A DNA stretch of 33,098 nt from Clostridia bacterium (GTDB taxonomy: Bacteria > Bacillota > Clostridia > Oscillospirales > SIG627): assembly GCA_017959745.1 (NCBI GenBank), contig JAGDAA010000160.1, positions 1-33,098 on the forward strand. The letters are read 5' to 3'. Of the stretch, positions 1 through 15,082 are shown in pieces. Positions within the stretch are counted from its first letter, which is position 1, and each line of letters opens with the position of its first letter. The notes below the pieces were generated by a model that made no database searches, was not told the origin of the DNA, and was given only the letters and a program-made list of their open reading frames with translations. The translations under genes were made by a program, and so were the position numbers.

Positions 1-495
1 GCGGACGCGGCGCGTTTTACGGGATTGAGCGAAAAGCTGATGGACCGTTCTCCCTTCGAGTTGTCCGGAGGACAGAAGCGACGGGTCGCCATCGCCGGCA
101 TCATCGCCATGGATCCGGAGATCCTGGTGCTGGATGAACCCGCCGCCGGGCTGGATCCCGCCGGAAAAAAGGAGATCCTGGATCGCCTGAAAGCCTATCA
201 GCGGGAAAGGGAAAAGACCCTGATCCTCATTTCTCACAGTATGGAGGATATGGCCTCCTACGCGGATGAGATCGTTGTTATGAAAGACGGTTCCGTCTTC
301 TGCCACGATACGGTGGACGGTATTTTCAGCGATCCCGCCCGTGTGGAGGAAGCCGGATTGGAGCTGCCTCAGATCACGCGCCTTATGATGCGCCTCTCCG
401 CCCGGGGTGTTCCGGTCGATCCGGGCGTTCATACTGTTGATGCCGCCGTTGCCTGTGTGTCGTCTCTGCTCCGGGGAGGTGACAAAACGTGCTGA
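1..495 (+). CDS. ecfA2: Energy-coupling factor transporter ATPase (EcfA2), 5'-truncated by the window edge
   Basis: Frame is open from base 1. ABC signature LSGGQKRRVAIAG, Walker B ILVLDEP and H-loop ISHSM; lies directly upstream of ecfT. Confidence 0.92.
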   Translation, partial: ADAARFTGLSEKLMDRSPFELSGGQKRRVAIAGIIAMDPEILVLDEPAAGLDPAGKKEILDRLKAYQREREKTLILISHSMEDMASYADEIVVMKDGSVFCHDTVDGIFSDPARVEEAGLELPQITRLMMRLSARGVPVDPGVHTVDAAVACVSSLLRGGDKTC

Positions 496-1316
496 AGGAT
501 ATCACCTTAGGACAGTATTTCCCCGGGCAGTCCCCGCTGCACCGGCTGGATCCCCGGATGAAATTGATCCTGATGATCGCTTTTGTGGTGCTGATCTTTT
601 TCGCCCGGACTCTTCCGTCTTTCGTGTATCTTGTGATCCTTGTGGCGGCGCTGACCGCTGTGTCCGGCATCCGGGTAAAGGCGCTTATGAAAGGTTTGAA
701 ACCCGTTGTTTTCATCTCCGTCTTTACGGCGGTGATCAATTTGTTCTGGACCGTCGGGGAAACGCCCCTGGTCTCCTTTTGGGTCATTACCATTTATCCT
801 GAGGGGATCTGGCGGGCGGCGTATCTGATCGTCCGCATCATGGCGCTTGTCGCCGGGACAAGCCTGCTGCTTACCTATACCACCACCCCTATGGAATTGA
901 CGGACGCGCTGGAGTCCCTGTTGTCGCCCTTGAAGAAGATTCACGTTCCGGTACACGAATTCGCTATGATGATGTCCTTGGCTCTACGCTTTGTGCCGAC
1001 GCTTATTGAGGAGACTGAGAAGATCATCAACGCGCAGAAAGCGCGGGGCACGGATTTTGAAAGCGGAAGCCTGCTGCGGCGCGCCAAAGCGCTGATCCCC
1101 ATTTTGATCCCGCTCTTTGTTTCTTCCTTCAACCGGGCGTCGGAATTGGCGACCGCCATGGAGTGCCGGTGCTACACCGGCGGGGAAGGCAGGACGAGAC
1201 TGAAACAACTGCGGCTCACCGGCTTTGATTGGGCTTGCGCCGCTCTGCTTCTCCTGTCCTTCGCCGGGATCATTCTTACCAACTATGTGCCCTTTCCCTG
1301 GGGAGGTGTTCTGTGA
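489..1316 (+). CDS. ecfT: Energy-coupling factor transporter transmembrane component T
   Basis: N-terminal ITLGQYFPGQSPLHRLDPR, several TM helices, and AQKARG and AMECRCY motifs; GTG start after GGAGGT. Confidence 0.95.
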   Translation: MLKDITLGQYFPGQSPLHRLDPRMKLILMIAFVVLIFFARTLPSFVYLVILVAALTAVSGIRVKALMKGLKPVVFISVFTAVINLFWTVGETPLVSFWVITIYPEGIWRAAYLIVRIMALVAGTSLLLTYTTTPMELTDALESLLSPLKKIHVPVHEFAMMMSLALRFVPTLIEETEKIINAQKARGTDFESGSLLRRAKALIPILIPLFVSSFNRASELATAMECRCYTGGEGRTRLKQLRLTGFDWACAALLLLSFAGIILTNYVPFPWGGVL

Positions 1317-2056
1317 ACCGGTATTTGCTCCAGTTGGCGTATTTGGGGACCAACTACCACGGCTGGCAGATCCAGGACAACGCCGTCACTGTGCAGGAAA
1401 AGGTGGAGGCCGCGTTGGCGGAGCTGTTTTCTGAGAAGATCACCACCCACAGCTGCAGCCGCACTGACGCCGGCGTACACGCCGCTTCATTTTACTGCCA
1501 TTTTGACGCGTCGTACCCCTTCCCGGTGGATCGCTTGCCTTACGCGCTGACCACGCATCTGCCGCCGGATATTCGGCCCCTGTCGGCGCGGATCGTCCCT
1601 CCGACTTTTCACGCAAGGTACTCCTGTCGGGGCAAAGAATATCGGTATCTGATCGATAACAGTGTGCTGGGAGATCCGTTTTTGATCGACCGCGCCTGGC
1701 ACTATCCCTTTCTTTTGGACGAAAAGGAGATGGACCGGACGGCGAAGGTCTTTCTGGGGCAACACGATTTCGCGGCGTTTCGCGCACAGGGCTCGAGCGT
1801 GAAAAACACTATTCGCACCATGACGCGATCGGATGTGGCGCGGGATGGTTCCCGTGTGATCTTCACGGTCGCCGGAGACGGCTTTTTGTACAATATGGTC
1901 CGCATTATGCTGGGCACACTGATCGCTCATCAGCGCCATAAACTGGATCGGGAACCGGAGGAGATCTTTGCCACGGGTGATCGTACACTGGCGGGTTTTA
2001 CCGCGCCGCCCCAGGGCTTGTACCTGGAAAAAGTTTTTTACGACGATCCGGAGTGA
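1313..2056 (+). CDS. truA: tRNA pseudouridine(38-40) synthase
   Basis: YLGTNYHGWQ, SRTDAGVHA (catalytic Asp), GFLYNMVR and TAPPQGLYL. GTG at 1313 overlaps the ecfT stop and follows GGAGGT. Classic ecfA-ecfT-truA order. Confidence 0.96.
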   Translation: MNRYLLQLAYLGTNYHGWQIQDNAVTVQEKVEAALAELFSEKITTHSCSRTDAGVHAASFYCHFDASYPFPVDRLPYALTTHLPPDIRPLSARIVPPTFHARYSCRGKEYRYLIDNSVLGDPFLIDRAWHYPFLLDEKEMDRTAKVFLGQHDFAAFRAQGSSVKNTIRTMTRSDVARDGSRVIFTVAGDGFLYNMVRIMLGTLIAHQRHKLDREPEEIFATGDRTLAGFTAPPQGLYLEKVFYDDPE

Positions 2057-2074
2057 TCGGGAAAGGAGGAACGT

Positions 2075-3226
2075 ATGGCTGATAAAGCTGAGGCAAAGTC
2101 CGGCAAACTGATCAAAAAATACCGGCTCTATAAGTTTGTCACTCTGGGCGTTCTCGTGTTGTTCCTCCTGGGCGGATTGGTCCTGTTTCAAAAGGATATC
2201 ACACTGGAAAACCTCCGGTATCTCGTCAAGTATGTGGGCTTCTATTCCGGCACTCCGGAAGGCGGCTCCACCATCCTGTATGACGCGGACACGGAGAATG
2301 TTTACGGCTCCTTTCGCGGGGATCTGGCGGTGGTCAACCACGGCGGTATGTCCCTGTATGACAGAATGGGTACTGCCGTTCTGACGGATTCCTTCAATAT
2401 GACCAACCCCGTAATGGAATCCGGCGATAAATTTTTGATAGTTTACGATCTGGGCGGCCATAATCTGAGAGTGTATAACTCATTCTCTCTGCTTCACGAG
2501 GAGAACTTCGAATACACCATTCAGTCTGTTTCCGTGAACGCAGCCGGCTATTACAGCGTGGCGACCGCGCAGCGATCTTACCACGCCGCTGTGGTAGTAT
2601 ACAACGACGATTTCAAAGAGGTGTTTCGCTGGCTGTCCGCGGAGAAATTTGTCACCGACTGTGTTTTGACGGATACGGAGGCGATGTATCTCACCACCAT
2701 TCGCGTGGAAGGCGGGGACCTTGTGGGCGAGGTTTTGGAGTTGAAGGTGGGCAGGGACGAGGTGGTGTCCTCCTATGAACTGACAGATGAAATGCCCATA
2801 GATATTGCCTGGACGCGAAAGGGTGTGTTGTATCTGACGGATACCTCCCTTCGTTTCGTCAGCGGGGGAGAGGCTTTGAAAAGCAATGTGTTTCCCACGC
2901 GATCCCTGGATAAAGCCGTTATGGGAGACTCCCTTTGCGTAGTGGCACAGAACGAGCTTTCCGTCGGCGTTTCCATGAAGCTCCGCCTGTTTGACCGGGA
3001 GGGAAACGAAACGGCTTCACGGGATTTTTCCGCGCAGATTCAGGATCTGGAGGTATACGACGAGGAGGCGATCCTGTTGACCTATAACCACCTGTACCGA
3101 CTGACTTCGGACGGGAACTGGACGGACTATCAGATCTCCGGCGATTACTCCGCCATCGCGATCCTCGGGCAAAACACGGTTGCGCTGTGTTCGGATTCCA
3201 GGGCTGAGATTATGGCGCTATCTTGA
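2075..3226 (+). CDS. Membrane-anchored beta-rich extracellular protein, DUF5711-like
   Basis: Single N-terminal TM helix followed by beta-strand-rich, propeller-like repeats; AGGAGG RBS. Family assignment is from recall only. Confidence 0.65.
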   Translation: MADKAEAKSGKLIKKYRLYKFVTLGVLVLFLLGGLVLFQKDITLENLRYLVKYVGFYSGTPEGGSTILYDADTENVYGSFRGDLAVVNHGGMSLYDRMGTAVLTDSFNMTNPVMESGDKFLIVYDLGGHNLRVYNSFSLLHEENFEYTIQSVSVNAAGYYSVATAQRSYHAAVVVYNDDFKEVFRWLSAEKFVTDCVLTDTEAMYLTTIRVEGGDLVGEVLELKVGRDEVVSSYELTDEMPIDIAWTRKGVLYLTDTSLRFVSGGEALKSNVFPTRSLDKAVMGDSLCVVAQNELSVGVSMKLRLFDREGNETASRDFSAQIQDLEVYDEEAILLTYNHLYRLTSDGNWTDYQISGDYSAIAILGQNTVALCSDSRAEIMALS

Positions 3227-3241
3227 TTTTGGAGAGAAAGA

Positions 3242-3943
3242 ATGACTTACGTCTTGTTTGATACCATTGCCGCCCTGTTGATCATCGGATTTGCCGTATG
3301 GGGTATGAGACGGGGCTTTATCAAAACTTTTTTCGGTTTATTCGGGTTTCTGATCGCCATCGCCGTCGCTCTGTTATTCGCCGCGCCTTTGGCGGCGCTT
3401 CTGAAAGAGCATCTGGTTGAACCGGCGCTTTCCTCCTTCTTCCTGAAGGAGCTTTCAAATGAAACGATGCAAAGCAGCGCCGAGATCGATTTTTCAGCTT
3501 TGCCAGACAGTGCAGTGGCACTTTTCTCTCGCTTCGGGATATCCCCGGAGGCTTTGGCAGAGCAGGTGATAAACGCCGGGCGGACCGCGGGACGGGACCT
3601 GGCGCAATCCATTGCCGCCTTTGCCGTGTCTCGGGCGGCGACGACCCTTTCTCACGCCATCGCCTTCATTTCGCTGTTCGGCTTATCCTCCCTCCTCCTT
3701 GCGATCTTGGCCCGGGTTCTGGACCTTGTGGCAAAGATCCCCGGCCTTCACCTGACAAACAGGGTTTTCGGTTTGATAGCGGGGATTGGAGAGGGGGTTG
3801 CCCTTGCTTTCGTGTTCGCGCGGGTGTTGGCGTTGTTAGAGCCCGTTATGCGGGCATCCGATTGGATTTGGATCTCCGGTTTTTCCGTGGATCAGACCTA
3901 TTTGATCCGGTTTCTCGCGTCCTGGGCGCCAGGAATGAATTGA
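3242..3943 (+). CDS. CvpA family membrane protein
   Basis: DxIxxxxxxxFAVWGMRRGFIK start and NRVFGLIAG motif typical of colicin V production family proteins. Confidence 0.85.
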   Translation: MTYVLFDTIAALLIIGFAVWGMRRGFIKTFFGLFGFLIAIAVALLFAAPLAALLKEHLVEPALSSFFLKELSNETMQSSAEIDFSALPDSAVALFSRFGISPEALAEQVINAGRTAGRDLAQSIAAFAVSRAATTLSHAIAFISLFGLSSLLLAILARVLDLVAKIPGLHLTNRVFGLIAGIGEGVALAFVFARVLALLEPVMRASDWIWISGFSVDQTYLIRFLASWAPGMN

Positions 3944-3967
3944 TATTACCTGAAAGAGGTTTCTGAT

Positions 3968-4585
3968 ATGGCAACATTTGAGAAGAAAAACATCCCCAAT
4001 ATCATCTCCGTATTCCGCATCGTTCTGGTCCCGCTGTATGTGTTGTTGTTCTTCGGGGTCATTCCGTGGGGAGAGCCTTTGATATCCTCCGGTATCGTCT
4101 TTATTGTGGCGGGGATCAGTGACCTGGCTGACGGATACCTGGCGAGGCGAAACAACTGGATCACAGACGTGGGAAAACTGTTGGATCCGTTAGCGGATAA
4201 ACTGCTGGAGCTTGCCGTCACGCTTTGTATCGCGATCCGCTTTGGAAACGCGTTCATCCTTCTCGCCGCCATCACGGTGATTAAAGAGGGCGTTATGATC
4301 GTGGGCGCCTTCATCATCCTGCGCCACGGAAAGTTTGCTGTATCAAGTGTATGGTACGGGAAGGCGGCGACATTTGCCTGGTTCCTGACTGTTCTTATTA
4401 TGAGTTTCATTCCTTCCGCCGTGGCGTGGGGGCAGTATCTCTGCATCGCGTTGATCGGATTTATGGCGTTTGCGTTCATTATGTACGTGATCCACTTCAA
4501 GGACGTTATAGCTAAAACCTGGAAAGAGCTCCATAAGGATAAGGGAGCAAAGGCCTCTATGACAGAGGCGGAGGAAACCAAATGA
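3968..4585 (+). CDS. pgsA: CDP-alcohol phosphatidyltransferase (PgsA-like)
   Basis: NIPNIISVFR and the DLADGYLARR-x7-GKLLDPLADK signature. Confidence 0.85.
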   Translation: MATFEKKNIPNIISVFRIVLVPLYVLLFFGVIPWGEPLISSGIVFIVAGISDLADGYLARRNNWITDVGKLLDPLADKLLELAVTLCIAIRFGNAFILLAAITVIKEGVMIVGAFIILRHGKFAVSSVWYGKAATFAWFLTVLIMSFIPSAVAWGQYLCIALIGFMAFAFIMYVIHFKDVIAKTWKELHKDKGAKASMTEAEETK

Positions 4586-6855
4586 AAATGTGTTCGCGCT
4601 GCAAAAAAAGACCCGCTGTTATTTATATCAATAAGATCCAGGGGGAGAAGGTCTCCTCCGAGGGCCTTTGTATGCACTGCGCCCGGGAATTGAAGATCAA
4701 GCCCTTCAGCGATTACATGGATCAGATGGGAATCAAGGACGACGATATCGACGTGCTGGAAGAACAGATGGGCCATATGATGGAAGGTGTAGAGCCGGGC
4801 GAGGGCGGGATGCCCACCTTTGATCTGAAAAACCTGTTTGGCGGGAATATTGAACCCACCGAGGAGGAGAACTCCGAAAAGGAAGACGCTCCGGAGGATG
4901 GGAAGGACGGAAAAGACAAAAAGAAAAAGAAAAAGCACGGTAAGATGCTGGATACCTATTGTCTGGATCTGACCGGCCGCGCCGCGGAAGGAAAGCTGGA
5001 CCGGGTCATCGGCAGGGAGGCGGAGCTGGATCGGGTGATTCAAATCCTGTGTCGACGGCAAAAGAACAACCCCTGTCTGATCGGGGAGCCGGGCGTGGGA
5101 AAGACCGCGATCGCGGAAGCATTGGCTTCCCGTATCGCGGAAAAGAAAGTACCGTACCGCCTGCTGAATAAGGAGGTATTTCTGCTGGATCTCACAGGCC
5201 TGGTCGCCGGCACTCATTTCCGCGGTCAGTTTGAGGGGCGCGTGAAAAGCCTGGTGGAGGAGATCAAAAAGCTGGGGAATGTGATCCTGGTGATCGATGA
5301 GGTCCACACCATCGTAGGCGCCGGGGATTCAGAGGGTGGAATGAGCTGCGCCAATATCCTAAAGCCCGCCCTGTCCCGGGGCGAGATCCAGATCATCGGC
5401 GCCACGACGCTGGCGGAATACCGGAAGTATATCGAGAAGGATCAGGCGCTGGAACGCCGCTTCCAGCCCGTTATGGTGGAGGAGCCCAGCGTCGCTAAAA
5501 CGGTGGAGATTCTGAAGGGCGTAAAAAAGTACTATGAAACCTATCACGGCCTGCGCGTCCCGGACAGCGTACTGCGGACAACCGTCCTTCTTTCCGAACG
5601 GTATATTACCGACCGTTTTCTCCCGGATAAAGCCATCGATATTCTGGACGAGGCTTGCGCCAAGAAGAACATCGACAGCGAGGTCATCAACCGCCTGGAT
5701 GCCTTGAAGGACGAGATCGATCAGGAGAAAAAGGAGCGGGAGGCGCTGGAGGGAAAGGCGGACCCGGACGACGCTACCTACGCCCGCATCGCGGAACTGA
5801 AGGTCAGTGAAATGCGGAAAGAGGAGGAGTATTCGGAGCTTTCTCGCCGACGCGACGGGATCGAGATCACGCTGGAGGACGTAGCGCGGGTGATCGAGTC
5901 CTGGACGGGTATTCCCGCCTCCAGTATCTCTGAAAATGAATTTGAGAAGATCGCCGGCCTGGAAGACGAATTGAAGCGCCGCATCATCGGGCAGGACAAG
6001 GCGGTCAGCGCCGTCTGCCGCGCCATCAAACGCCACAGAGCCGGGATCTATATGAAGAAAAAGCCCGCCAGTTTTATCTTCGCGGGTCCCACCGGCGTGG
6101 GAAAAACGGAGCTTGTCAAACAGTTGGCGCTGCAGCTTTTTGATACGCCGGAGTCCTTGATCCGGCTGGATATGTCCGAGTTTATGGAGAAGCATTCTGT
6201 TTCCAGGATCATCGGATCGCCCCCCGGTTACGTGGGGTATGATGACGCGGGTCAGCTCACGGAGAAGATCCGGCGCAAGCCTTACTCGGTTGTGCTTTTC
6301 GACGAGATCGAAAAGGCACATCCTGATGTTCTGAACATTCTGCTTCAGATCCTGGACGAGGGACGCATCACCGACGCCCACGGCAAGGAAGTCAACTTTG
6401 AGAATACCGTCATCATTATGACTACCAATGCGGGCGCCAACGCCGGCAGTGTGGTCTCCGGATTCGGCGACAGCAGTGTGGTGACGGAAGAGAAGCGCAC
6501 CATGAAGGGGCTGGAGAGCTTTTTGCGGCCCGAATTCATCAATCGCGTGGACGAGATCGTGACATTTTCCCACCTGACCCGGGAGGACTTCAAGGCCATC
6601 GCCCTTCTTCGCCTGGACGACCTGAAGAAGAGTATGGAAGAGAAGGGGACGGAGCTTCGTTTTGACGATGCCGTTCCCGTATTCGTCGCGGAAAAATCTT
6701 ACAGTGAAAAATACGGCGCGCGGAATATGACGCGTTTCCTCCAAACCGAGGCGGAGGACCGCATCGCTCAATGCGTGATCGATCATTATTTGGAGAAACC
6801 GGATGCGATCCGATTGTCGGTCAAGCTTGACCATTTGGAAGCCGCTCCGGAGTAA
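4582..6855 (+). CDS. Class I Clp/Hsp100 ATPase with N-terminal CxxC...CxxC zinc finger (ClpE/ClpC-like)
   Basis: Two AAA+ modules (GEPGVGKT/IDEVH and GPTGVGKT/FDEIEKAH), pore loop GYVGY, middle coiled coil, and N-terminal CSRC...CMHC. ATGA overlap with pgsA. Confidence 0.93.
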   Translation: MKMCSRCKKRPAVIYINKIQGEKVSSEGLCMHCARELKIKPFSDYMDQMGIKDDDIDVLEEQMGHMMEGVEPGEGGMPTFDLKNLFGGNIEPTEEENSEKEDAPEDGKDGKDKKKKKKHGKMLDTYCLDLTGRAAEGKLDRVIGREAELDRVIQILCRRQKNNPCLIGEPGVGKTAIAEALASRIAEKKVPYRLLNKEVFLLDLTGLVAGTHFRGQFEGRVKSLVEEIKKLGNVILVIDEVHTIVGAGDSEGGMSCANILKPALSRGEIQIIGATTLAEYRKYIEKDQALERRFQPVMVEEPSVAKTVEILKGVKKYYETYHGLRVPDSVLRTTVLLSERYITDRFLPDKAIDILDEACAKKNIDSEVINRLDALKDEIDQEKKEREALEGKADPDDATYARIAELKVSEMRKEEEYSELSRRRDGIEITLEDVARVIESWTGIPASSISENEFEKIAGLEDELKRRIIGQDKAVSAVCRAIKRHRAGIYMKKKPASFIFAGPTGVGKTELVKQLALQLFDTPESLIRLDMSEFMEKHSVSRIIGSPPGYVGYDDAGQLTEKIRRKPYSVVLFDEIEKAHPDVLNILLQILDEGRITDAHGKEVNFENTVIIMTTNAGANAGSVVSGFGDSSVVTEEKRTMKGLESFLRPEFINRVDEIVTFSHLTREDFKAIALLRLDDLKKSMEEKGTELRFDDAVPVFVAEKSYSEKYGARNMTRFLQTEAEDRIAQCVIDHYLEKPDAIRLSVKLDHLEAAPE

Positions 6856-6859
6856 AGGC

Positions 6860-9838
6860 ATGAATCTGCTTGAAATCAGTCTGGACAAGTTAATCAGCAT
6901 CCTGGGTACGGATACCGCGCTGGGACTGACCGGGGAACAGGTTTTGCGTAACCGACGTGAATTCGGCGAGAACGTGGCGCGCGAGAACCCGCGCACCGTT
7001 TCCTCCCTTGTCAGAAAGATCTTCGGCGACGTGATGATGATTATTTTCCTCTTCACGGGGCTATTTGATTATTTCAACAGTCATAACGTCGTTTCCCTGA
7101 TCTGCATCCTGTTTGCGGCGGTGCTTTACGCCGCGCTTGTATTCGGCTCCTTCCTGTACGTTCGCCGGGTGGACGCGGCGGTGGAAAAGTTTTCCAAAAA
7201 CAGGGTCCACGTGCGCCGGAACGGTAGGATCATTAGCGTAAAAAACCGGGATCTGGTCCCCGGGGATATCCTGATTTTGGAGAGAGGGGACGTGTTGCCC
7301 TGCGATGGGATCATCCTTTCTGCCAAAACCCTTCTCGTGCTGGAAGCAAAATCCGCCGGCGCGCGCGCTCCCGCGATCAAGCGTAGCCACACGGAGGTCA
7401 GTGACCTGGAGGATTCCGAATATTTTGACTGCGTCCTGTTCGCTGGAAGCGTTGTCTTGCAGGGTGCGGCGCACGTCTTCGTTTGCAACACCGGGGCGGA
7501 TTTATTTGACGCCGAAAACCCCACCGTTTCCCGGCAGATCGGGACCGTTCCCCGGGTCTATCGTTTGGCGATGTCCCTGAAGAAGGAGATCCTCCTGATC
7601 TGGGTGCTCGCCTGCTTTGTGATCTTTGCTTGGGGCGTTTTCCGGGGGCAGGACGTATTTCGCATCTTTTATTACAGCGCCGCTATGGTGATTGCCGCTT
7701 TTCCTTCCTCCATTGAGTATTACTGCGATCTTGCCGTAGCTTACATGAAGAGCCGCTTGTTCCGGGCGGGGGCGATTCTGCGAAATCCCGGTGCCGTCGA
7801 TCGCTTGTGCGATGCCGACCGTATCTTTATCCACTCCGCCGATTACCTGTATTACGCGAAACCCCTCGCGTCTATTTACTACGTTGGGGACCGGGAATAC
7901 GATTTCCGGCAGGATCACATACCCGCTAAACCGATGCTGGAGGATCTGCTCCTGGCGTCCATGTCGCCGACGTACTGGAACGATCCCCGTCACGCTCAGG
8001 AGCGAAAAAACGAGAGAGTCATTCAGGGCGCCGCCGCGCGGTGCGGTCTTCAAAAACGCCGCCTGGACCACGACTATCTCTTTGTCAACCATTCGGACCC
8101 GGATGAACAGCATGCCTATTCCTGCTCCCTTGTCCTGCGGGATGGCGCTTATCGCCTCGTGGTAAGAGGGGATCCGAAAGCCGTATTATCGCTGTGTGCA
8201 TTTTACCGGAGCGGTCCGGAGGATCTTGCTTTGACGGACGGGGTCTCTATGCTGATCCGCTCCACCTTCCGTAGGATCGCGGGCAACTGCGAACACATCG
8301 TCGCTGTCGCAGAGCTAAATCTTCCTTCCCCGCCGGAAGGGGATTTGCGCCGGGTTTGCCGTAAAATGTCCTATATGGGTGTTTTCGGTTTGTCTACGCC
8401 GGTTAGCGCGTCCGCCGCGGAAGAAGTGAACAGTTGCGAGAAAGCAGGTATTAACACCTACCTTCTGACGGATGATTACCCCGAGACGGTGGAAGCCCTT
8501 GCCAAGAGTGTTTCCATCATCAAGGAGAAGGATGATCAGCACGCTCTCCGATACGACAGTTACCGCCGGATGGATCGGGGCGTTTTTGTGGCGGATCTGG
8601 AACGGTACAAAGCGTTTTCCCAGTTTCCTCCGGAGGAAAAGCAGATCATCCTGCGCTATCACAAGAATAACGGTCATAAAACGCTGTCCCTGACGGACGG
8701 TATGCGGGATATTCTGCCTCAGATGGAATCGGATATTTCCTTCGCGGACGCGGCGGAATCCAGTCCGGCTGTCCGTATGAACGCGGATGTTTTGATGCGG
8801 GATAAGAAATACAATTTAGTGCCTTTGAGCATTCATTGGTCGCGCCTTCTGTATCATAACCTTGTTCACATTATGCAGTTTATCCTGATTTTGCAGGTAT
8901 CGCTGTTTTTCTCCGTTTTTTTGTGTCTGACGCTGACCGGGGAGACCGTATATCCGCTTTTTCCCATGATCTTCGCGGGCCTCGGCGCGGCTTTGCCCTG
9001 TACCTTCAATATCTATCACCGGAAACCCGGCGCGGTCCTGCCACGCCGTCTGGGAGTTTTGAAGGACAGGATCTATTCCTTGCAGGTCCTGATCCTCATA
9101 CCGGCCATCGCCGGGCTCGTGGGGGCGATCGGGATGACTCTTTCCCGGCAGATCACCCTGTTTTCTTCCGGCAGCGCGGACGCGGCGTGCGGAGCGGGGA
9201 TCCTGACAATGGCGTTTTCCGCCTGGTTCGCCTCCCTTTCTATAAAGACGGAGGGACCTTTGTTCCGCAATCTGCGGGAGATCGGTCGTACGGGACTTAT
9301 CACGTTCCTGATCACCCTTTTTGTTTCCGTTGTTACCGTTTTTACGCCCTTCGCGAAGCTGTATAATCCCTCCTATGAAGAAAAGGGCGCGGGGCTGACC
9401 TTCGCGACCGGCGCGCTCTCGCTTCTTCTTTCTCTGCTACCTATGCTGGTCATAGAGTTGATGAAGTATTTGAGAAGGGAAGAGGTACCGAGCGGACAAA
9501 GGAAGCTTTCCCGGAGCCGGATCATAGCAGTGTTCGGAAAGCTTGTCAAAAAGCGCATCCCCCGTCCGGATAAAGCCAAAGGCGTTCCGGAGGAAGCGCC
9601 CGCACCATTGGAAATCTCTAAAAAGGAAGCGTCGGAGCAGGCGGGAGAGGAACAGGCCGAGGAAGAAAAAGCGGAGGATCAGGCGCCAGAGGACGAAAAT
9701 GAAGAAGACACGGTCCTGAAGGACTTGAAAGAGATCCTGGAAAAGATTGAGCAGGAGAAAACAGAACAGACAAAGGCTGAATTTGACGAAGAAGAGCAAA
9801 CCGACGAGGAACAGTCGGAAGAAAATGAAAGGAAGTAA
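6860..9838 (+). CDS. P-type ATPase homologue (P2-like architecture) with degenerate catalytic motifs; probable pseudo-enzyme
   Basis: GLT..Q...R..FGEN, DLVPGDILIL and LFAGS are recognisable. DKTGT, TGES, PEGL, KGA, TGD and GDGxND are all replaced. Acidic C-terminal tail. Start taken at ATG 6860. Confidence 0.85.
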   Translation: MNLLEISLDKLISILGTDTALGLTGEQVLRNRREFGENVARENPRTVSSLVRKIFGDVMMIIFLFTGLFDYFNSHNVVSLICILFAAVLYAALVFGSFLYVRRVDAAVEKFSKNRVHVRRNGRIISVKNRDLVPGDILILERGDVLPCDGIILSAKTLLVLEAKSAGARAPAIKRSHTEVSDLEDSEYFDCVLFAGSVVLQGAAHVFVCNTGADLFDAENPTVSRQIGTVPRVYRLAMSLKKEILLIWVLACFVIFAWGVFRGQDVFRIFYYSAAMVIAAFPSSIEYYCDLAVAYMKSRLFRAGAILRNPGAVDRLCDADRIFIHSADYLYYAKPLASIYYVGDREYDFRQDHIPAKPMLEDLLLASMSPTYWNDPRHAQERKNERVIQGAAARCGLQKRRLDHDYLFVNHSDPDEQHAYSCSLVLRDGAYRLVVRGDPKAVLSLCAFYRSGPEDLALTDGVSMLIRSTFRRIAGNCEHIVAVAELNLPSPPEGDLRRVCRKMSYMGVFGLSTPVSASAAEEVNSCEKAGINTYLLTDDYPETVEALAKSVSIIKEKDDQHALRYDSYRRMDRGVFVADLERYKAFSQFPPEEKQIILRYHKNNGHKTLSLTDGMRDILPQMESDISFADAAESSPAVRMNADVLMRDKKYNLVPLSIHWSRLLYHNLVHIMQFILILQVSLFFSVFLCLTLTGETVYPLFPMIFAGLGAALPCTFNIYHRKPGAVLPRRLGVLKDRIYSLQVLILIPAIAGLVGAIGMTLSRQITLFSSGSADAACGAGILTMAFSAWFASLSIKTEGPLFRNLREIGRTGLITFLITLFVSVVTVFTPFAKLYNPSYEEKGAGLTFATGALSLLLSLLPMLVIELMKYLRREEVPSGQRKLSRSRIIAVFGKLVKKRIPRPDKAKGVPEEAPAPLEISKKEASEQAGEEQAEEEKAEDQAPEDENEEDTVLKDLKEILEKIEQEKTEQTKAEFDEEEQTDEEQSEENERK

Positions 9839-9843
9839 AGAAA

Positions 9844-10047
9844 ATGATCGTAACGAAAGAGAGCATTATCGGCGAGGTTCTGGACGCCGATGTTGAGACC
9901 GCCCCCTACTTTTTTGAAATCGGGATGCACTGTCTCGGATGCCCCGCGTCCCGGGGCGAATCCATTGAGGCGGCTTGTGCCGTACACGGTACAGACCCGG
10001 ACCTGCTGGTTGAAAAACTCAATGCCCACTTTGCCGCCAAGGCATAA
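9844..10047 (+). CDS. DUF1858 domain small protein
   Basis: GMHCLGCPASRGESIEAACAVHG motif; 67 aa. Confidence 0.88.
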   Translation: MIVTKESIIGEVLDADVETAPYFFEIGMHCLGCPASRGESIEAACAVHGTDPDLLVEKLNAHFAAKA

Positions 10048-10735
10048 AAAAACGCGTTTGCCGGCGCGGCTCGCCGCCATCGCGGAACGGTTGCCTGAGG
10101 AGGGCGTGTTTTGCGACGTTGGCTCCGACCACGGCTTACTGCCCTTGTTTCTCCTGCAGCAACGCAAAGCCCTGCGCGCCGTGGTGACAGATATCAAACC
10201 GCTCCCTCTCGCCCGGGCGAAAGAAGCACTGGCGGCAGGCGGTGTCGCGGATCGCGCCGAATGCGTTTTGGCGGACGGGATCGCTTCCCTGGGTGGACGG
10301 GGAATTGATTTCTATGCTATCGCCGGTATGAGCGGGGAGACCATCGCTCAGATCCTCCGGGAGGGAAAAACGACCCTGCACGCGGGACAGCGCTTTTATT
10401 TGCAACCTATGAGCCACGAGGATATCCTTCGTACTCATTTGAGCGTCGAAGGGTTCCGCATCACGGAGGAAACGGTCATCCGGGAAAACGGCAAACTGTT
10501 TTTACTGATTTGCGCGACCTTTACCGGGATGCCCGGGGAAGCGCCGGATCCTATCACCGCCGCTTTGGGAATGTATCTGGATCAACATCCCGGCGTGTGG
10601 GGCAGGGCATACTTTGAAATAAAAAGGGACCGGCTTGTCCGTACGGCGGAAAAGCGCCGGGCGGCGGGGTTGGATGCCTTTGATCAGGAATCGGTACTGG
10701 CGCGCATCCGTGAGATTTTGAAGGAGGAACCATGA
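10022..10735 (+). CDS. trmK: tRNA (adenine(22)-N1)-methyltransferase
   Basis: RLAAIA, DVGSDHGLLP, IAGMSG, LQPM and ETVIRENGK motifs; precedes nif3. Start is uncertain (ATG 10022 or TTG 10058). Confidence 0.88.
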   Translation: MPTLPPRHKKTRLPARLAAIAERLPEEGVFCDVGSDHGLLPLFLLQQRKALRAVVTDIKPLPLARAKEALAAGGVADRAECVLADGIASLGGRGIDFYAIAGMSGETIAQILREGKTTLHAGQRFYLQPMSHEDILRTHLSVEGFRITEETVIRENGKLFLLICATFTGMPGEAPDPITAALGMYLDQHPGVWGRAYFEIKRDRLVRTAEKRRAAGLDAFDQESVLARIREILKEEP

Positions 10736-11508
10736 AGATATCGGAGATCGAAGCCTTTCTGAATGAGAGATTCCCCCGCTCCCTTGCCTGTGAATGGGAT
10801 AATGACGGGCTGCTTGTCTGCCCGGACCGGGAAAGGGAAGTGCGCCTTGTGATCACCTGCCTTGACGTAACCCTGTCCGTGATCCACAAGGCCATCGAAT
10901 CCGGCGCGGAGCTGATCCTCAGCCACCATCCGCTTTTGTTTCACCCGCTAAACAGGATCAGCGAGGATGATCTCGCGGGTCAGAAGATCCTGCTATTAAT
11001 TCGCCACGGGATTTCCGTGCTTTCCCTACATACGCGCTTTGACGGCGCGCCCGGGGGCTTGAATGAGCATTTCGCCAAGAGCCTTGGGGTCTGTGTAGAG
11101 GAACATGTTGCGCTGTTGCCCGAGGAGCCCCACATTGGGGATCTGGGCGTCTTGTCGGAACGGATGATGCCGGAGGATCTTGCCCGTCACGCCGCCGCCG
11201 TGTTGGACGCTCCGGTGAGGCTGTATTCCGCCGGCGGGTCTGTGGAACGTGTCGCGGTTTCTTGCGGCAGCGGAAAAGATCTGGTGGAACCCGCCCTGGA
11301 AGCAGGCGCGGACGCCTTTATTAGCGGCGATATTCCTTATCACGCGGCACAGAGCGCTGTAGAGCGGGGTATGACCGTCATCGATTGCGGGCATCACGCG
11401 TCGGAGAATGCCGCCCCCGATGTTTTTCGGCGGATTCTGCAGCGGGAGTTTCCCGAACTGGGCGTGCTCGCCCTGCATGAACCTCTCGGCGGGGAAATAA
11501 TCGGTTGA
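10732..11508 (+). CDS. Nif3-like dinuclear metal center protein
   Basis: WDNDGLLV, CLDVT, SHHPLLF, LHTRFD and DCGHHASE motifs; ATGA-coupled to trmK. Confidence 0.93.
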   Translation: MKISEIEAFLNERFPRSLACEWDNDGLLVCPDREREVRLVITCLDVTLSVIHKAIESGAELILSHHPLLFHPLNRISEDDLAGQKILLLIRHGISVLSLHTRFDGAPGGLNEHFAKSLGVCVEEHVALLPEEPHIGDLGVLSERMMPEDLARHAAAVLDAPVRLYSAGGSVERVAVSCGSGKDLVEPALEAGADAFISGDIPYHAAQSAVERGMTVIDCGHHASENAAPDVFRRILQREFPELGVLALHEPLGGEIIG

Positions 11509-11569
11509 GTTTTCTTTCATTTCTTTTTTGTTTTACGCAAAAACCGCTCCTTTTTTGTCAGTTTTTATC

Positions 11570-11598
11570 TTGATTATGGAGATAATCAGTGATATAAT
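11570..11598 (+). promoter_or_regulatory. sigmaA promoter of the oppA-like gene, overlapped by an 18-bp dyad
   Basis: TTGATT-17 nt-TATAAT with TGn extension; TGATTAT-ggag-ATAATCA at 11571-11588. Confidence 0.75.
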
Positions 11599-11645
11599 AC
11601 ACTTTAGTATCAACCCGCATACCCTTGCGGTCAAGGAGGTTAGGC

Positions 11646-13373
11646 ATGAAAAAATCCATCGCGATCCTGCTTCTCATCACGATGCTTTTGCCCCTGTTCG
11701 CATCCTGTCAAACGGATCCGGATGACAAGGGCGCCATTATTCCCGTTTATTTTGCGGAGTCGTTTGAGAATCTTGATCCCACCGCAGCGATCTACGATAA
11801 GGATTTCTATCAGATTTCCGGCCTTGTGTTTGAAGGACTTACGTCCGTTGAGAACGGCAAGATCCGGAACAATCTGATCCAAAGCTGGGAAAAGAAATAC
11901 AATGAGGACAGAAATGAGTATTTCCTGACCATCAAGCTGGATAACACCCGGTGGAACGACGGTCGCGCCTTTACCGCCGATCAGGTGGTCTACGCCTGGA
12001 AGCGCATTCTGTCTCCGGAAGTGGATTGTCCCGGCGCCGCGCTTCTATTTGACGTCAAGAACGCCCGTGCCATCAAGGCAGGCGAAAAGACCATTGATGA
12101 ACTGGGCGCCGCCGCTGTGAGCATTCGTACCCTGGAGGTCCAGCTTGAATCCCCCATCGATCCGGAGCTTTTCCTGGAAGCGATCTCCAGTCCCGATCTT
12201 GTCCCTATGCGTGACGACGTTGTAGTGGGAAAGGAAGCGACCTGGGCGACCAACGTGGACGACATTGCCACCAACGGTAAATTCATCTTGAAGCAGATGG
12301 ACCCCAAAGGCTCCTTCAACTACGAATTCTCCAAATTCTACAAGCTGAACAGCGAGATGAAAAACGGGTACAACGAATTCGTCAAGCCCTTCCGTTTGAT
12401 CTCCGATTTCGGCAAGACCTCCGCGGACGCTCTAGCGGCGTTTGACAACGGGGAGATCTATTATTTCGGCGCTGTCACCCCCGAGATCTACGAAGAGCGG
12501 AGCAAGGATATCAAGTCCTTTGATACGATTTCTTCCTATACCTATTATTTCAACTGCAAGAATAAGATCCTGTCCGATCCCAAGGTCCGCCAGGCGCTCT
12601 CCGAAGCGTTGGATCGCGGGCAGATCGCGCAGCTCGTTGGTATGGGGTCCAAGGCCTGTGAGGGCTTCGTCCCCGAGAAGGCGACCGGATCCTCCCTGGG
12701 AAGCAGTTTCCGGAAGGAAGCCGGCGCTGTGTATTCCGCCGCCGGGGACGCCGACAAGGCGAAGTCGCTTTTGAAGGAAGCCGGCGTTTCCTCCGGCAGT
12801 ATTCGACTGACCTATCGGGAGGACCGCTCCTATGAAGAGGCTGTGGCGAAATACGCCAAGTCCGTTTGGGATGCCCTGGGCTTTTCCGTGAGTCTGGATG
12901 CCGTCAGCGCATCGTCCATTTCCGAAGCGATTTCTTCCGGAAAATATGACGTGATCGGGCTGGACTACACCGGGCTTTCCACCAACCCCTACGCCTTCCT
13001 GGCTCCCTTCGCGCCCGGCTATTGCGGCGCGGTGGTCAGCGTGGATCCCGAGGACGAACTGGAGTCGCTTCATCCCACTGGATATGAATCCAAGGCTTAC
13101 GAGTCCCTGTTGGATGAAGTCCTCGCCGCGACGGAACGCAAGGCGCGCAACGAAAAGCTCATCGAGCTGGAGAAGCTTTTTGCTACGGAATGCCCCGCCG
13201 CCGCTTTGGTGACCTATAAAAACAATTATCTCGCATCCTCCGAATTGTCCGGGCTTTCCGGCAGTATCTACGGCTATACCGAGTTTACCAACGCGACGCT
13301 CAAGGATTATAAGACCAAGAACGAAGCGTACCTGGAAATGGAAAAAGCCGCCGAGGAAGCGGAAGAGAAGTAA
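11646..13373 (+). CDS. Peptide ABC transporter substrate-binding lipoprotein (OppA/family 5)
   Basis: Lipobox LFASC, LDP, LVFEGLT, WNDG..FTADQVVYAWKR and DPKVRQALSEALDR; AGGAGG RBS before ATG 11646. Confidence 0.9.
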   Translation: MKKSIAILLLITMLLPLFASCQTDPDDKGAIIPVYFAESFENLDPTAAIYDKDFYQISGLVFEGLTSVENGKIRNNLIQSWEKKYNEDRNEYFLTIKLDNTRWNDGRAFTADQVVYAWKRILSPEVDCPGAALLFDVKNARAIKAGEKTIDELGAAAVSIRTLEVQLESPIDPELFLEAISSPDLVPMRDDVVVGKEATWATNVDDIATNGKFILKQMDPKGSFNYEFSKFYKLNSEMKNGYNEFVKPFRLISDFGKTSADALAAFDNGEIYYFGAVTPEIYEERSKDIKSFDTISSYTYYFNCKNKILSDPKVRQALSEALDRGQIAQLVGMGSKACEGFVPEKATGSSLGSSFRKEAGAVYSAAGDADKAKSLLKEAGVSSGSIRLTYREDRSYEEAVAKYAKSVWDALGFSVSLDAVSASSISEAISSGKYDVIGLDYTGLSTNPYAFLAPFAPGYCGAVVSVDPEDELESLHPTGYESKAYESLLDEVLAATERKARNEKLIELEKLFATECPAAALVTYKNNYLASSELSGLSGSIYGYTEFTNATLKDYKTKNEAYLEMEKAAEEAEEK

Positions 13374-13383
13374 AGTCACTATC

Positions 13384-13431
13384 GCTCCACGCAGTTATTG
13401 CTTTTTCGGGTAAAACTGCGTGGAGCTTTTT
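13384..13431 (+). terminator. Intrinsic terminator after the oppA-like gene
   Basis: 13-bp stem GCTCCACGCAGTT/AACTGCGTGGAGC followed by a T run. Confidence 0.8.
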
Positions 13432-13478
13432 AATCAACCTGATTTTGGATATTCGCGCGAATTGAGAGAGGAAACCGT

Positions 13479-13892
13479 ATGGGATGGGTTCTTGGAATTC
13501 TGGCTGTTATATGCTTGGTTCTTGCTATCTATCTATTGCTTTTGATCCGTCTGGAAAGCGCGGCTGTGAGCCGTTTGCCTTTGCTGAAAAATGATCCCGC
13601 CGGATTTACCGCCTATTGGGAGAATAAATACAAGAAGATGCGCCTTCGTCAAAGAAAGAACGTTGCCTTGTTTTTAGTTGCCGTTGGTTTATATCGGCAG
13701 GGCTTGTATTCCGAAGCAATGGAGCGGCTGAGATTTGTCCGCAAAAACGATCCCGCACTGGATCAGGACGCCGTCAACGCCCTTTGGCACATACTGTTGA
13801 TGAAGCTGGACAGAGGGGATGAATCCATTGCGTTTTATCAGGAACACGCCGCCTCTATTGAACGGGGAAAGGATTCCCCCTGGATGAAATAA
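13479..13892 (+). CDS. Hypothetical membrane-anchored protein with a TPR-like helix pair
   Basis: N-terminal TM helix; AVGLYRQGLYSEAMERL resembles a TPR; GAGG RBS; followed by a terminator. Confidence 0.6.
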   Translation: MGWVLGILAVICLVLAIYLLLLIRLESAAVSRLPLLKNDPAGFTAYWENKYKKMRLRQRKNVALFLVAVGLYRQGLYSEAMERLRFVRKNDPALDQDAVNALWHILLMKLDRGDESIAFYQEHAASIERGKDSPWMK

Positions 13893-13900
13893 CGCTACCA

Positions 13901-13936
13901 AAAAAAAGAACACCGCCGCGGCGGTGTTCTTTTTTT
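13901..13936. terminator. Bidirectional intrinsic terminator between convergent genes
   Basis: A7-GAACACCGCCG|CGGCGGTGTTC-T7, a perfect palindrome. Confidence 0.85.
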
Positions 13937-13948
13937 GATGTCGCTTTA

Positions 13949-15082
13949 TTACTGCTTCTTATAGGTGCTTTCCTTGCCTTTGATGGTGAGGGCCTCGGCG
14001 CCCAGGTAAGAGGCGACGTCCATTCCCAGGTACTGCGCCATATCACGCATTTCCGCAACGGTATTGACGTTCACCTGGATGCCGTTCTTCATACGGTCTG
14101 CCATGGCGAAGACTTCCTTTTCCCCGTGAGTGTAGATCCGGGGCTGACCCTCCGCCTTGGGAGAGTTGCGGATATCGTCCAGATAAGAGGACAGATGCGC
14201 CTTGATGGCTTCCGGATCGCCGAATGCCTTGGGATCGATGACCATAAAGCCGTGGCAAATGCCGCTGTGCCCGTTGGAACCGGTCTTATCGGAAGTGAGG
14301 CCGCCGGAGAGAATGGCGGAGAAGATCTCGGAGACCATACCCCAGCCGTAGCCCTTGTGGCTTCCGCTGGCTTCTTCAATACCGCCCAGGGGCAGAATGC
14401 CGCCGCCTTCATGCGCCTGAATATCGCTGAGAACACGCGCCGCGTCGGTTTCGCCCGCGCCGGTGGAATTGATCGCCCAGCCTTCGTGGAGGGGCTTGTC
14501 CAGCTTGTTGTAGACTTCCAGCTTGCCCCGGGTTACCACGGTGGTGGCGGCGTCGAAGAAGAAGGGGTAGGGCTCAGCCGGGCAGGCGATGGCGATGGGG
14601 TTGGTGCCCAGCATTGCCACACGCCCGAAGGTGGGGACCATAATGGGATTGGTATTGGTGGTGGAAAGACCGATCAGGCCCTGATCGCACGCCATTTTGG
14701 CGTAGTAACCGGCGATGCCGAAGTGGTTGGAATTTTTCACGGTCACGATCGCCATACCGGTCTTCTTCGCCTTTTCAATGGCTTTTTCCATCGCGCGGTG
14801 GGAGACCACCTGACCCATACCGGCCTTCGCGTCGATCACGGCGGAAACGGGCGTTTCAAACAGCACTTCCGGTTTAGCGTCCACCTTGATCCTGCCCTTT
14901 GCGATGTTCATATGATAGACCACGATCCGCTGCATGCCGTGGCTTTCGATGCCGTAGAGATCCGCCATCAGCAAAACATCGGAAATGATCCCGGCTTCCT
15001 CTTTGTTGAAGCCGAATTTCTCAAAGGCGTCGTCGCAGAATTTCTTTAACTGCTCATAGGAATAAGTTAAGTAATTGTCCAT
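13949..15082 (-). CDS. Ldh_2 family NAD(P)-dependent oxidoreductase (malate/L-lactate/ureidoglycolate dehydrogenase-like)
   Basis: ADLYGIESHG, NSNHFGIAGYY, GTNPIAIA and GSHKGYG motifs. Confidence 0.9.
   Translation of the reverse strand: MDNYLTYSYEQLKKFCDDAFEKFGFNKEEAGIISDVLLMADLYGIESHGMQRIVVYHMNIAKGRIKVDAKPEVLFETPVSAVIDAKAGMGQVVSHRAMEKAIEKAKKTGMAIVTVKNSNHFGIAGYYAKMACDQGLIGLSTTNTNPIMVPTFGRVAMLGTNPIAIACPAEPYPFFFDAATTVVTRGKLEVYNKLDKPLHEGWAINSTGAGETDAARVLSDIQAHEGGGILPLGGIEEASGSHKGYGWGMVSEIFSAILSGGLTSDKTGSNGHSGICHGFMVIDPKAFGDPEAIKAHLSSYLDDIRNSPKAEGQPRIYTHGEKEVFAMADRMKNGIQVNVNTVAEMRDMAQYLGMDVASYLGAEALTIKGKESTYKKQ

Follow-up and report, generated by a model that had tools for sequence, protein, structure and literature searches.

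The window analysed here, a stretch of 33,098 nucleotides from a Clostridia bacterium, carries on its forward strand an open reading frame (ORF, 6860-9838) that almost certainly encodes a selected pseudo-pump: a structurally complete, catalytically dead descendant of the P2A (Ca2+-pump type) ATPases, and not a broken gene. The frame runs from an ATG at 6860 to a TAA at 9836-9838 and holds 992 codons with no internal stop. It begins 4 nucleotides (nt) after the TAA (6853-6855) of a gene for a Clp-type unfoldase, and a GGAG is found before its ATG at 6849-6852. An initial annotation of this DNA had described an uninterrupted frame of about 990 codons starting 4 nt behind the Clp gene, which is accurate; the end that it assigned to the gene (9480) is too short. 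It had also taken the gene for a selected pseudo-pump and not for a decaying pseudogene, and this reading is now supported by the loss of the motifs (intact in 0 of 24 related copies) and by ratios of nonsynonymous to synonymous substitution (dN/dS, here omega) of 0.080-0.089 and 0.20. Two features of a pseudoenzyme are found together: homology to an enzyme family with loss of the catalytic residues, and purifying selection with retention across species.

How secure is the relationship to P-type ATPases? The homology is far beyond chance, and the fold is that of a full-length P2 pump. In Pfam, E1-E2_ATPase (PF00122) matches with an E-value of 1.3e-21 (77.4 bits against a cut-off of 28.1) and Cation_ATPase_N with 5.5e-7; the HAD Hydrolase model (PF00702) fails, with 13.8 bits against 26.4. 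The NCBIfam subfamily model TIGR01494 (HAD-IC P-type ATPase) passes with 94.9 bits against 62.3. The best NCBIfam models are those of P2-type pumps, all of them far under their cut-offs, such as TIGR01522 (PMR1-type; 109.5 bits against 798.3) and TIGR01116 (SERCA-type; 80.5 bits), whose equivalog cut-off of 703.4 is not reached. Among solved structures, the best match is the Ca2+-ATPase LMCA1 of Listeria, which HMMER aligns over residues 19-811 (E = 6e-29).

Hydropathy gives nine clear membrane segments and a weaker M4, the ten-helix pattern of P2 pumps. The initial annotation had recognised a full-length P-type ATPase homologue with its transmembrane (TM) segments, in agreement with this pattern and with an end-to-end alignment to P2A Ca2+-ATPases. 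The structure prediction that it had called for was made with AlphaFold2 (AF2) from a 48-sequence alignment and gave the full P2 fold, with a mean predicted local distance difference test score (pLDDT) of 82.6 and a predicted template modelling score (pTM) of 0.75; only the last ~120 residues and one loop are low. With this model, Foldseek returned P2 pumps at a probability of 1.0 over about 920-1010 columns (LMCA1, 6zhh, 5e-40), the top TM-score being that of hSPCA1 in the CaE1 state (0.55/0.60). The P-type architecture is present throughout: Cation_ATPase_N, an actuator (A) domain, a phosphorylation (P) domain with an inserted nucleotide-binding (N) domain, and ten membrane helices. In the ESM Atlas, matches were solely to P-type ATPase clusters, some of which lack the hydrolase family. 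Three conserved cysteines (C148, C191, C209) were considered as a metal site and dropped, as they occupy Ala-type core positions of real pumps.

The catalytic motifs of this body have all been replaced. Seven substitutions had been quoted in the initial annotation, and all seven are where it placed them; both the HMMER alignment with LMCA1 and a MAFFT alignment with real pumps put them in the motif columns (Table 1). His325 (CAC, 7832-7834) occupies the position of the phosphorylated Asp. DKTGT, TGES, and the HAD motifs TGD and GDGxNDxP are absent, and IHSAD, SAGAR, TDD, and TDGMRDIL stand in their places. The ion site is altered as well. Work on SERCA has assigned ion binding to the PEGL Glu of M4, N..E of M5, and N..TD of M6. 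Real pumps have E, N..E, and N..TD in these columns, whereas the dead family has D or S, Q..L, and G..AV; at the M4 Glu column, S is found in the window's copy and D in most dead relatives. Most members of the dead family keep a Phe and an Arg that align with residues of the adenine pocket, the roles of which are likewise known from SERCA; in the window's copy they are Pro and His. Judged by its sequence, the protein is unable to form an aspartyl-phosphate or to dephosphorylate, and is without a canonical cation site. The pump (Post-Albers) cycle would be out of its reach, as it lacks a conserved nucleophile, TGES, the HAD motifs that bind Mg2+ and phosphate, the lysine of KGAPE, and a cation site. 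With the three defining catalytic features absent, the protein is a P-type ATPase by homology and apparently not a member by function.

Is the loss peculiar to this copy? Dead relatives and genuine P2 pumps were excised from whole genomes and aligned with MAFFT. Not one of the 24 related dead copies keeps any of LTGES, IPEGL, DKTGT, KGAP, TGD, or GDGxND intact, whereas LTGES, (I/M)PEGL, CSDKTGTLT, KGAP, TGD, and GDGVNDA are kept by 19/19 genuine P2 pumps, 14 of which come from genomes of the window's genus and the remaining 5 from elsewhere in the order, in other genera or families. Retention of DKTGT in close orthologues, which the initial annotation had named as evidence against a pseudo-pump, is therefore found in 0/24 copies. 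The phospho-Asp column holds N in 14 dead copies, H in 4 (the window included), Y in 1, and D in 5. The five Asp-retaining copies are the most divergent relatives and the remainder of their motif is gone; KTGT occurs in no copy. Because this column varies between N, H, Y, and D, no conserved nucleophile is left. The dead family has conserved words of its own: VTGRR, FPDSIE, (N)SSDYLFY, RGNP, STPIS, LLTDDYPETV, RMDRGVFVADIEKYKA, LPQMESDIS, and an N-terminal MNLLE (M1 N2 L3 L4 E5) that is invariant in the core of the family. Polar residues are also invariant across the family, namely R662, H670, and Q679 in M5 and E286 near M4.

A homologue search over 5.8 billion proteins gave 499 matches at E <= 1e-5. 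Among the best 120 of these 499, 45 proteins are 45-67% identical to that of the window, with one more at 34% and another two at 29-30%; according to a precomputed table, all of these lack the hydrolase family PF00702. Ordinary pumps in the same set of 120 start under 25% identity and all have PF00702. Dead copies are found in the window's taxonomic family (f1) and in a second family of the same order (f8), and have only 38 conserved columns in common. Real pumps share 27 of these columns. Among the remaining 11, which real pumps do not share, are D572, G574, and K584 (RMDRG..YK in the P domain), where real pumps have S, E, and S. The sharing of these derived residues speaks for a common origin of the two dead clades, and for a putative new functional surface in this segment.

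The gene is under purifying selection. By maximum likelihood (ML; GY+F3X4), the dead copy has an omega of 0.080 in a set of eight genomes in which the real pump has 0.059 and Clp has 0.074; with ten genomes, that of the window among them, the values are 0.089 for the dead copy and 0.072 for Clp. Pairwise Nei-Gojobori dS is saturated within the genus (pS 0.70-0.79). Comparisons of dN, the ML codon model, and a single pair were therefore relied on, the pair being the window's genome (G000) and G005, its nearest relative with DNA. Pairwise dN in the genus is 0.17-0.25 for the dead copy, which is within the range of its neighbours (Clp, 0.14-0.20; real pump, 0.11-0.31; NIF3, 0.19-0.37; PgsA, 0.19-0.25). 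In the G000-G005 pair, the dead copy has an omega of 0.20 (dS 1.55, dN 0.31), and the values for other genes are 0.046 (Clp), 0.107 (PgsA), 0.113 (TrmK), and 0.087 (NIF3). When the gene is divided into nine regions, each has an omega of 0.07-0.31 in this pair, with 0.07-0.28 for the membrane helices and the three cytoplasmic domains. A dN/dS near 1, which the initial annotation had regarded as telling against selection, is seen neither in the window pair (0.20) nor in the genus (0.080-0.089 by ML). Reading frames are open in all dead copies examined. A stop is created by 3.35% of the single-base changes in the pseudo-pump gene, and in a neutral simulation 0 of 2000 gene copies were still open at 0.1 substitutions per site.

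The window's copy belongs to the fastest-evolving, most degenerate branch of the dead family. This sub-branch consists of the window (P0001/G000), G005, P0003, and P0004 and has a long stem (0.66 in a quick IQ-TREE tree, 0.43 in FastTree). Here the divergence of the dead copy is 6.75 times that of Clp, whereas the 91 other pairs in the genus have a median ratio of 1.63, an acceleration of about 4-fold. Members of the sublineage depart from 330 highly conserved family columns at 42-65 positions, against a median of 8; the window's copy departs at 42 and keeps 288. Only P0001, P0003, P0004, and G005 have the C-terminal tail (amino acids, aa, 876-992), in which a basic helix is followed by an acidic low-complexity stretch, with 29 E and 15 K among 117 residues. 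Between the window and G005 the tail has an omega of 0.31 and an identity of 28%, and the pLDDT is below 50 over most of it. Constraint on the window's copy is relaxed or redirected, not lost. Most other members of the genus end in a short conserved ..KKDDSAxxRDS peptide instead of the acidic tail; this peptide could be a docking or degradation tag that has been replaced in the window's lineage.

How widespread is the dead copy? In a survey of 41 related genomes, it is full-length in 17/20 genomes of the window's genus and in 5/5 other f1 genera. Three genomes of the genus are without it (G007, G012, and G019; completeness 85-88%): two have only a real pump and one has nothing. The Zn-ribbon type of Clp described below is not seen in the same three genomes, where Clp matches begin near residue 95-100 or are not found. 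Because the clp and dead-pump genes are adjacent and these genomes are incomplete, one missing contig would explain both absences; alternatively, the two genes were lost jointly. When 301 genomes were sampled evenly across the order, the dead copy was present in 17/17 f1 genomes and in 5/18 f8 genomes. Six genomes beyond these two families (G038, G057, G068, G080, G150, and G188) also have a match at E <= 1e-70; the three matches checked, those of G038, G068, and G080, are real pumps.

Similar losses are seen further afield. From a profile search of 1.84 billion representatives (50% identity), the best 150 matches were taken; 147 of them were new to the analysis (P0122-P0268), and of these 27, counting fragments, lack all five motifs. 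A FastTree phylogeny was built from 148 sequences of 780-1100 aa, mostly top-scoring representatives (including P0036 and P0048 from the top 150) with 4 added family members. In this tree 38 sequences keep at most one of the five motifs, and 33 of the 38 lie in a single all-dead clade, although its support is weak (0.31) and long branches could attract. The motif-poor sequences outside the main dead clade look independent. Dead P2-type relatives are therefore not rare among the best-scoring representatives, and catalysis in P2-type pumps may have been lost several times. P0150, P0209, P0224, P0225, P0254, and P0262, with 0-1 of the five motifs, form a subclade inside the main dead clade in the quick tree. 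P0236/P0266, P0171, P0198, and P0208 also have 0-1 of the five motifs at P2-type length, and branch apart from that clade. In the window's own genome there are two other P-type ATPase genes, and one of them (G000:C27:20166-20687, reverse strand; open frame of 764 aa) has an in-frame TGA inside its E1-E2_ATPase match; this gene, which lies outside the window, may be broken or may have been misassembled.

The gene directly upstream of the pseudo-pump encodes a Clp protein with an N-terminal CxxC...CxxC module and two AAA+ domains (Pfam AAA_2, 6.7e-65; AAA_lid_9; ClpB_D2-small). Its closest PDB entries are ClpC (6em9, 4.8e-196) and ClpE (29hb, 2.1e-179), and no NCBIfam equivalog reaches its cut-off. 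We take the Zn-ribbon architecture of this protein to be comparable to that of ClpE. An examination of synteny with the Clp gene, also suggested in the initial annotation, found clp directly upstream of the dead pump in 28/30 f1 genomes (19/20 and 8/9, plus the window), often with a 4-nt overlap. The same arrangement is found in 5/5 f8 genomes, despite the fact that the f8 dead pump is only 22-25% identical to that of the window. Six loci from public collections have the same gene order and were left out of the 28/30 count because they may overlap with the counted genomes. By contrast, at 13 loci in 13 other families of the order, the gene 3' of the same clp is variable and unrelated; the nine downstream ORFs scanned at these loci include an S9 peptidase, a GH94 enzyme, and a histidine phosphatase. 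In the window and in loci L134-L148, the CxxC...CxxC module of Clp is followed by a conserved KMGI..D/E-rich helix and a ..D-L..LF motif. The Zn-ribbon Clp is found in nearly every genome of the order, mostly directly after pgsA, and beside a second, canonical ClpC-like paralogue (~810-830 aa); it seems to be a subtype without a curated name.

What might a pump body without catalysis do? The protein would work through its shape, its A, P, and N domains and ten membrane helices all being kept, because purifying selection maintains all of its parts. Since every domain is constrained, including the intramembrane R662, H670, and Q679, it is the whole pump body that would matter and not a mere membrane anchor. 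The gene arrangement points, tentatively, to a membrane-embedded, non-enzymatic partner of the neighbouring ClpC/ClpE-like AAA+ unfoldase, which might direct Clp activity to the membrane as an anchor or adaptor, or as a platform on which clients are presented. We regard this role as the likeliest of those considered, if somewhat short of probable, because the gene is almost always co-oriented with clp and abutting or overlapping it in two families, in a region where downstream content otherwise turns over. A scaffold (or partner), one of the candidate roles in the initial annotation, gains support from the same linkage.

Several observations weigh against a partnership with Clp. Both genomes of one genus within f1 (g4) are exceptions to the linkage: clp is ~80 kb away in G022, and in G195 there is no clp in the 3 kb fetched upstream. 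The neighbours of the dead-pump gene in g4, a lipocalin-like ORF and a PpiC-type gene on the other strand, give no functional lead. The Zn-ribbon Clp is found order-wide without the pseudo-pump and thus does not depend on it. Only 2/757 Clp columns separate the 32 proteins with a pseudo-pump neighbour from the 15 without one, so no co-adapted interface is visible. No fusion of Clp and the ATPase was seen among the listed homologues (the 120 listed and the profile-search matches). The adjacency could be an inherited gene order without functional meaning, and the catalytic inactivity of the pump body is something that we infer from its sequence. Two long proteins, P0190 (1608 aa) and P0250 (1418 aa), were considered as Clp fusions and rejected, as both are real pumps with PF00702 and P0190 is a tandem pump.

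A more elaborate form of the Clp partnership, which we consider speculative and improbable, is a two-part machine for the extraction of membrane proteins, made up of the pump body and the Clp motor. The former ion site, lined by small and hydrophobic residues, would be a cavity for a client helix or a lipid-embedded segment. Clp docked on the cytoplasmic headpiece of the pump would supply an ATP-driven pull and pass the client to ClpP. The proposed cavity can be likened to that of the P5A-ATPases, which handle transmembrane helices. If this were true, the scaffold of a pump would now rely on an AAA+ motor from outside in place of its own ATPase engine.

The strongest competitor to a Clp partnership, a possible but less likely one, is a membrane protein that acts independently of Clp and has the clp operon as an incidental location. 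Such a protein might bind or passively conduct a non-cation ligand, for example a lipid or another hydrophobic molecule, or might be a sensor of a ligand or nucleotide. The similar constraint on the ten helices and the three cytoplasmic domains (omega 0.07-0.28) is consistent with this view, as are the invariant R662, H670, and Q679 of M5 and E286 near M4. The ion ligands have been replaced by small or hydrophobic residues, so that a non-ionic cavity could open. In addition, the Phe and Arg aligned with the adenine pocket are kept in most family members, and g4 keeps the dead-pump gene without an adjoining clp. However, the window's sublineage has lost this Phe (to Pro) and Arg (to His), no ligand can be named, and the clp linkage persists in two families although the region 3' of clp is otherwise variable. 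A passive carrier had been among the roles proposed in the initial annotation. For cations this is disfavoured, because the ion-site residues of M4, M5, and M6 have been replaced.

The pseudo-pump could also be a regulatory or structural subunit of an active P-type ATPase, forming a hetero-oligomer with the resident Ca2+ pump. A canonical P2 pump is indeed present in 14/17 genomes of the genus that have the dead copy, and MgtA has been reported as a dimeric P-type ATPase. This explanation is doubtful. G021, which is 98% complete, has the dead copy and no second P2-type match at E <= 1e-10; its only other PF00122 matches are frames of 837 and 619 aa. The same profile finds no P2 paralogue in G005 (94% complete) or in the window's genome (76.75% complete). 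Where both genes are present they are unlinked, with ~35 kb between them in G010 and 48 kb in G003. The role of regulator of an active paralogue, another of the earlier suggestions, is disfavoured because of the dead copy in G021, for which no P2-type paralogue was found.

It is very improbable that the protein is still an ATP-driven transporter with non-canonical catalytic residues. It does pass the cut-off of TIGR01494, and five divergent relatives have Asp at the phosphorylation position. Against this, the nucleophile position is N, H, Y, or D, and TGES, TGD, GDGxND, and the KGAPE lysine have been lost as well; the Pfam hydrolase model fails, and the alignment shows no alternative conserved acidic or nucleophilic residue. 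A decaying pseudogene that is still open by chance, which the pace of the window sublineage (6.75 times the Clp rate, where the genus otherwise has a median of 1.63) and its 42 deviations from 330 conserved columns (median 8) might recall, can be set aside as hardly credible because of the omega values (0.20 in the sublineage, 0.08-0.09 in the genus) and the open frames in all copies examined, together with the 0/2000 simulated genes open at 0.1 substitutions per site and the 288/330 conserved columns kept, provided that the orthologues are not artefacts of assembly.

Table 1. Positions of the pseudo-pump, its domains and replaced motifs, and the adjacent genes in the window.
Feature	Position	Strand	Basis or remark
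pgsA-like CDP-alcohol phosphatidyltransferase	3968..4585	+	4-nt overlap with clp start
ClpC/ClpE-like class-I Hsp100 unfoldase, 757 aa	4582..6855	+	Pfam, PDB matches, N-terminal alignment
Dead P2A-type ATPase homologue	6860..9838	+	992 codons plus TAA; Pfam, LMCA1 alignment, AF2, Foldseek
Cation_ATPase_N region, aa 6-67	6875..7060	+	Pfam 5.5e-7
Actuator domain and TM3/TM4 (Pfam E1-E2_ATPase), aa 112-299	7193..7756	+	Pfam
SAGAR, aa 165-169, replacing TGES (LTGES in LMCA1); family consensus VTGRR	7352..7366	+	Alignments
FPSSI, aa 281-285, replacing M4 ion-site IPEGL (IPEAL in LMCA1); family consensus FPDSI	7700..7714	+	Alignments
IFIHSADYLY, aa 322-331, replacing ICSDKTGTLT (CTDKTGTLT in LMCA1)	7823..7852	+	Alignments
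RGDPK, aa 436-440, replacing nucleotide-domain KGAPE (KGGPD in LMCA1)	8165..8179	+	Alignments
TPVS, aa 513-516, replacing DPPR (DPPRE in LMCA1)	8396..8407	+	Alignments
LTDDY, aa 536-540, replacing TGD motif (ITGDH in LMCA1); family keeps LLTDDYPETV	8465..8479	+	Alignments
P-domain segment RMDRGVFVADLERYK, aa 570-584	8567..8611	+	D572, G574, K584 common to dead clades of both taxonomic families
TDGMRDIL, aa 612-619, replacing GDGxNDAP (TGDGVNDA in LMCA1)	8693..8716	+	Alignments
TM5-TM10, aa 661-866	8840..9457	+	Alignment, hydropathy, AF2
Lineage-specific C-terminal tail, aa 876-992	9485..9835	+	Alignment, composition, low pLDDT
trmK	9890-10735	+	Conserved downstream neighbour in the window's taxonomic family
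NIF3/DUF34	10732-11508	+	Conserved downstream neighbour in the window's taxonomic family

Around the pseudo-pump the genes follow the order pgsA, clp, the pseudo-pump ORF, trmK, and NIF3, and they overlap or are separated by very short gaps. The window is ordinary chromosome, with housekeeping genes on both sides and no tRNA. A promoter and terminator scan of positions 1-14000 found nothing informative between clp and the pseudo-pump ORF or just 3' of the ORF. A search for the CtsR operator consensus gave a single match with 3 mismatches at the distant position 32050, where the chance expectation was 2.18, and thus no sign of CtsR control. Elsewhere in the window, two unusual fusions of AMP-binding (adenylate-forming) enzymes adjoin a LeuA-like gene and a class IV aminotransferase: one (25749-28211, forward strand) has an N-terminal xylose-isomerase-like TIM barrel (AP_endonuc_2), and the other (28573-30837, forward strand) has an N-terminal HTH_19 and a cupin domain. 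An ORF of 988 aa on the reverse strand (19404-22370) combines an N-terminal ABC ATPase with a C-terminal FtsX-like permease, a single-chain MacB-like arrangement.

P-type ATPases are textbook enzymes that are defined by their phospho-aspartate. Here, a bacterial P2-type member has apparently lost all of its catalytic equipment, and yet its conservation throughout a family of uncultured gut Clostridia is as tight as that of a working pump; the pump body would thus have a second, non-enzymatic use. There is a practical side to this. A public source names the relative P0033 a 'cation-transporting P-type ATPase', because the cut-offs of TIGR01494 and PF00122 are passed. Since annotation by TIGR01494 lets such proteins through, metabolic and transport reconstructions of gut organisms may count a calcium pump that is not one.

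How does the pseudo-pump compare with known systems? It is collinear over the whole length with the bacterial P2A Ca2+-ATPases (LMCA1, PDB 6zhf/6zhh; TIGR01522/TIGR01116) and has the same domain order, ten helices, and fold. It differs from them in having all catalytic motifs and ion-site residues replaced, at about 20-24% identity, and the dead family has its own conserved VTGRR, FPDSIE, LLTDDYPETV, RMDRGVF..YK, and LPQMESDIS. A literature search, with subscription-only papers outside its scope, turned up no paper describing a P2-type pseudo-pump from bacteria, nor one linked to Clp. The parallels that were found are eukaryotic only, and contested.

The first parallel is TMEM94/ERMA of animals, a P-type-like protein without TGES. 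A structural study (PMC12134183) saw no nucleotide at the site where phosphorylation had been proposed, and found neither Mg2+ binding nor a phosphorylation cycle; the status of the protein is disputed, since PMC13322241 argues for a real Mg2+ ATPase. Like the pseudo-pump, TMEM94 has a P-type-like architecture and lacks TGES. Unlike it, TMEM94 is eukaryotic, much larger, and without a Clp partner, and no sequence relationship closer than the superfamily was found. The second parallel is the P4-ATPase module of the alveolate guanylate cyclase (P4GC), in which DKTGT and DGET are degenerate in some lineages; PMC13466520, which describes this, itself treats the loss of activity as unproven. The likeness to the pseudo-pump would lie in a P-type ATPase body that is kept, in a modified form or one that does not pump, where some lineages have lost the catalytic Asp and Glu. 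The P4GC module differs in being eukaryotic, of P4 type, and fused to a cyclase.

For the role proposed here, the comparison is with the adaptors of Clp proteins. Known adaptors, such as MecA or McsB for ClpC and SspB for ClpX, are small soluble proteins, and we know of no Clp adaptor that is a ten-helix pump relic. They provide an analogy for the proposed role alone, that of non-enzymatic positioning or client delivery. The conserved coupling to Clp may offer a concrete lead on what the pseudo-pump can do, and it is in the Clp link that the lead to its function would lie.

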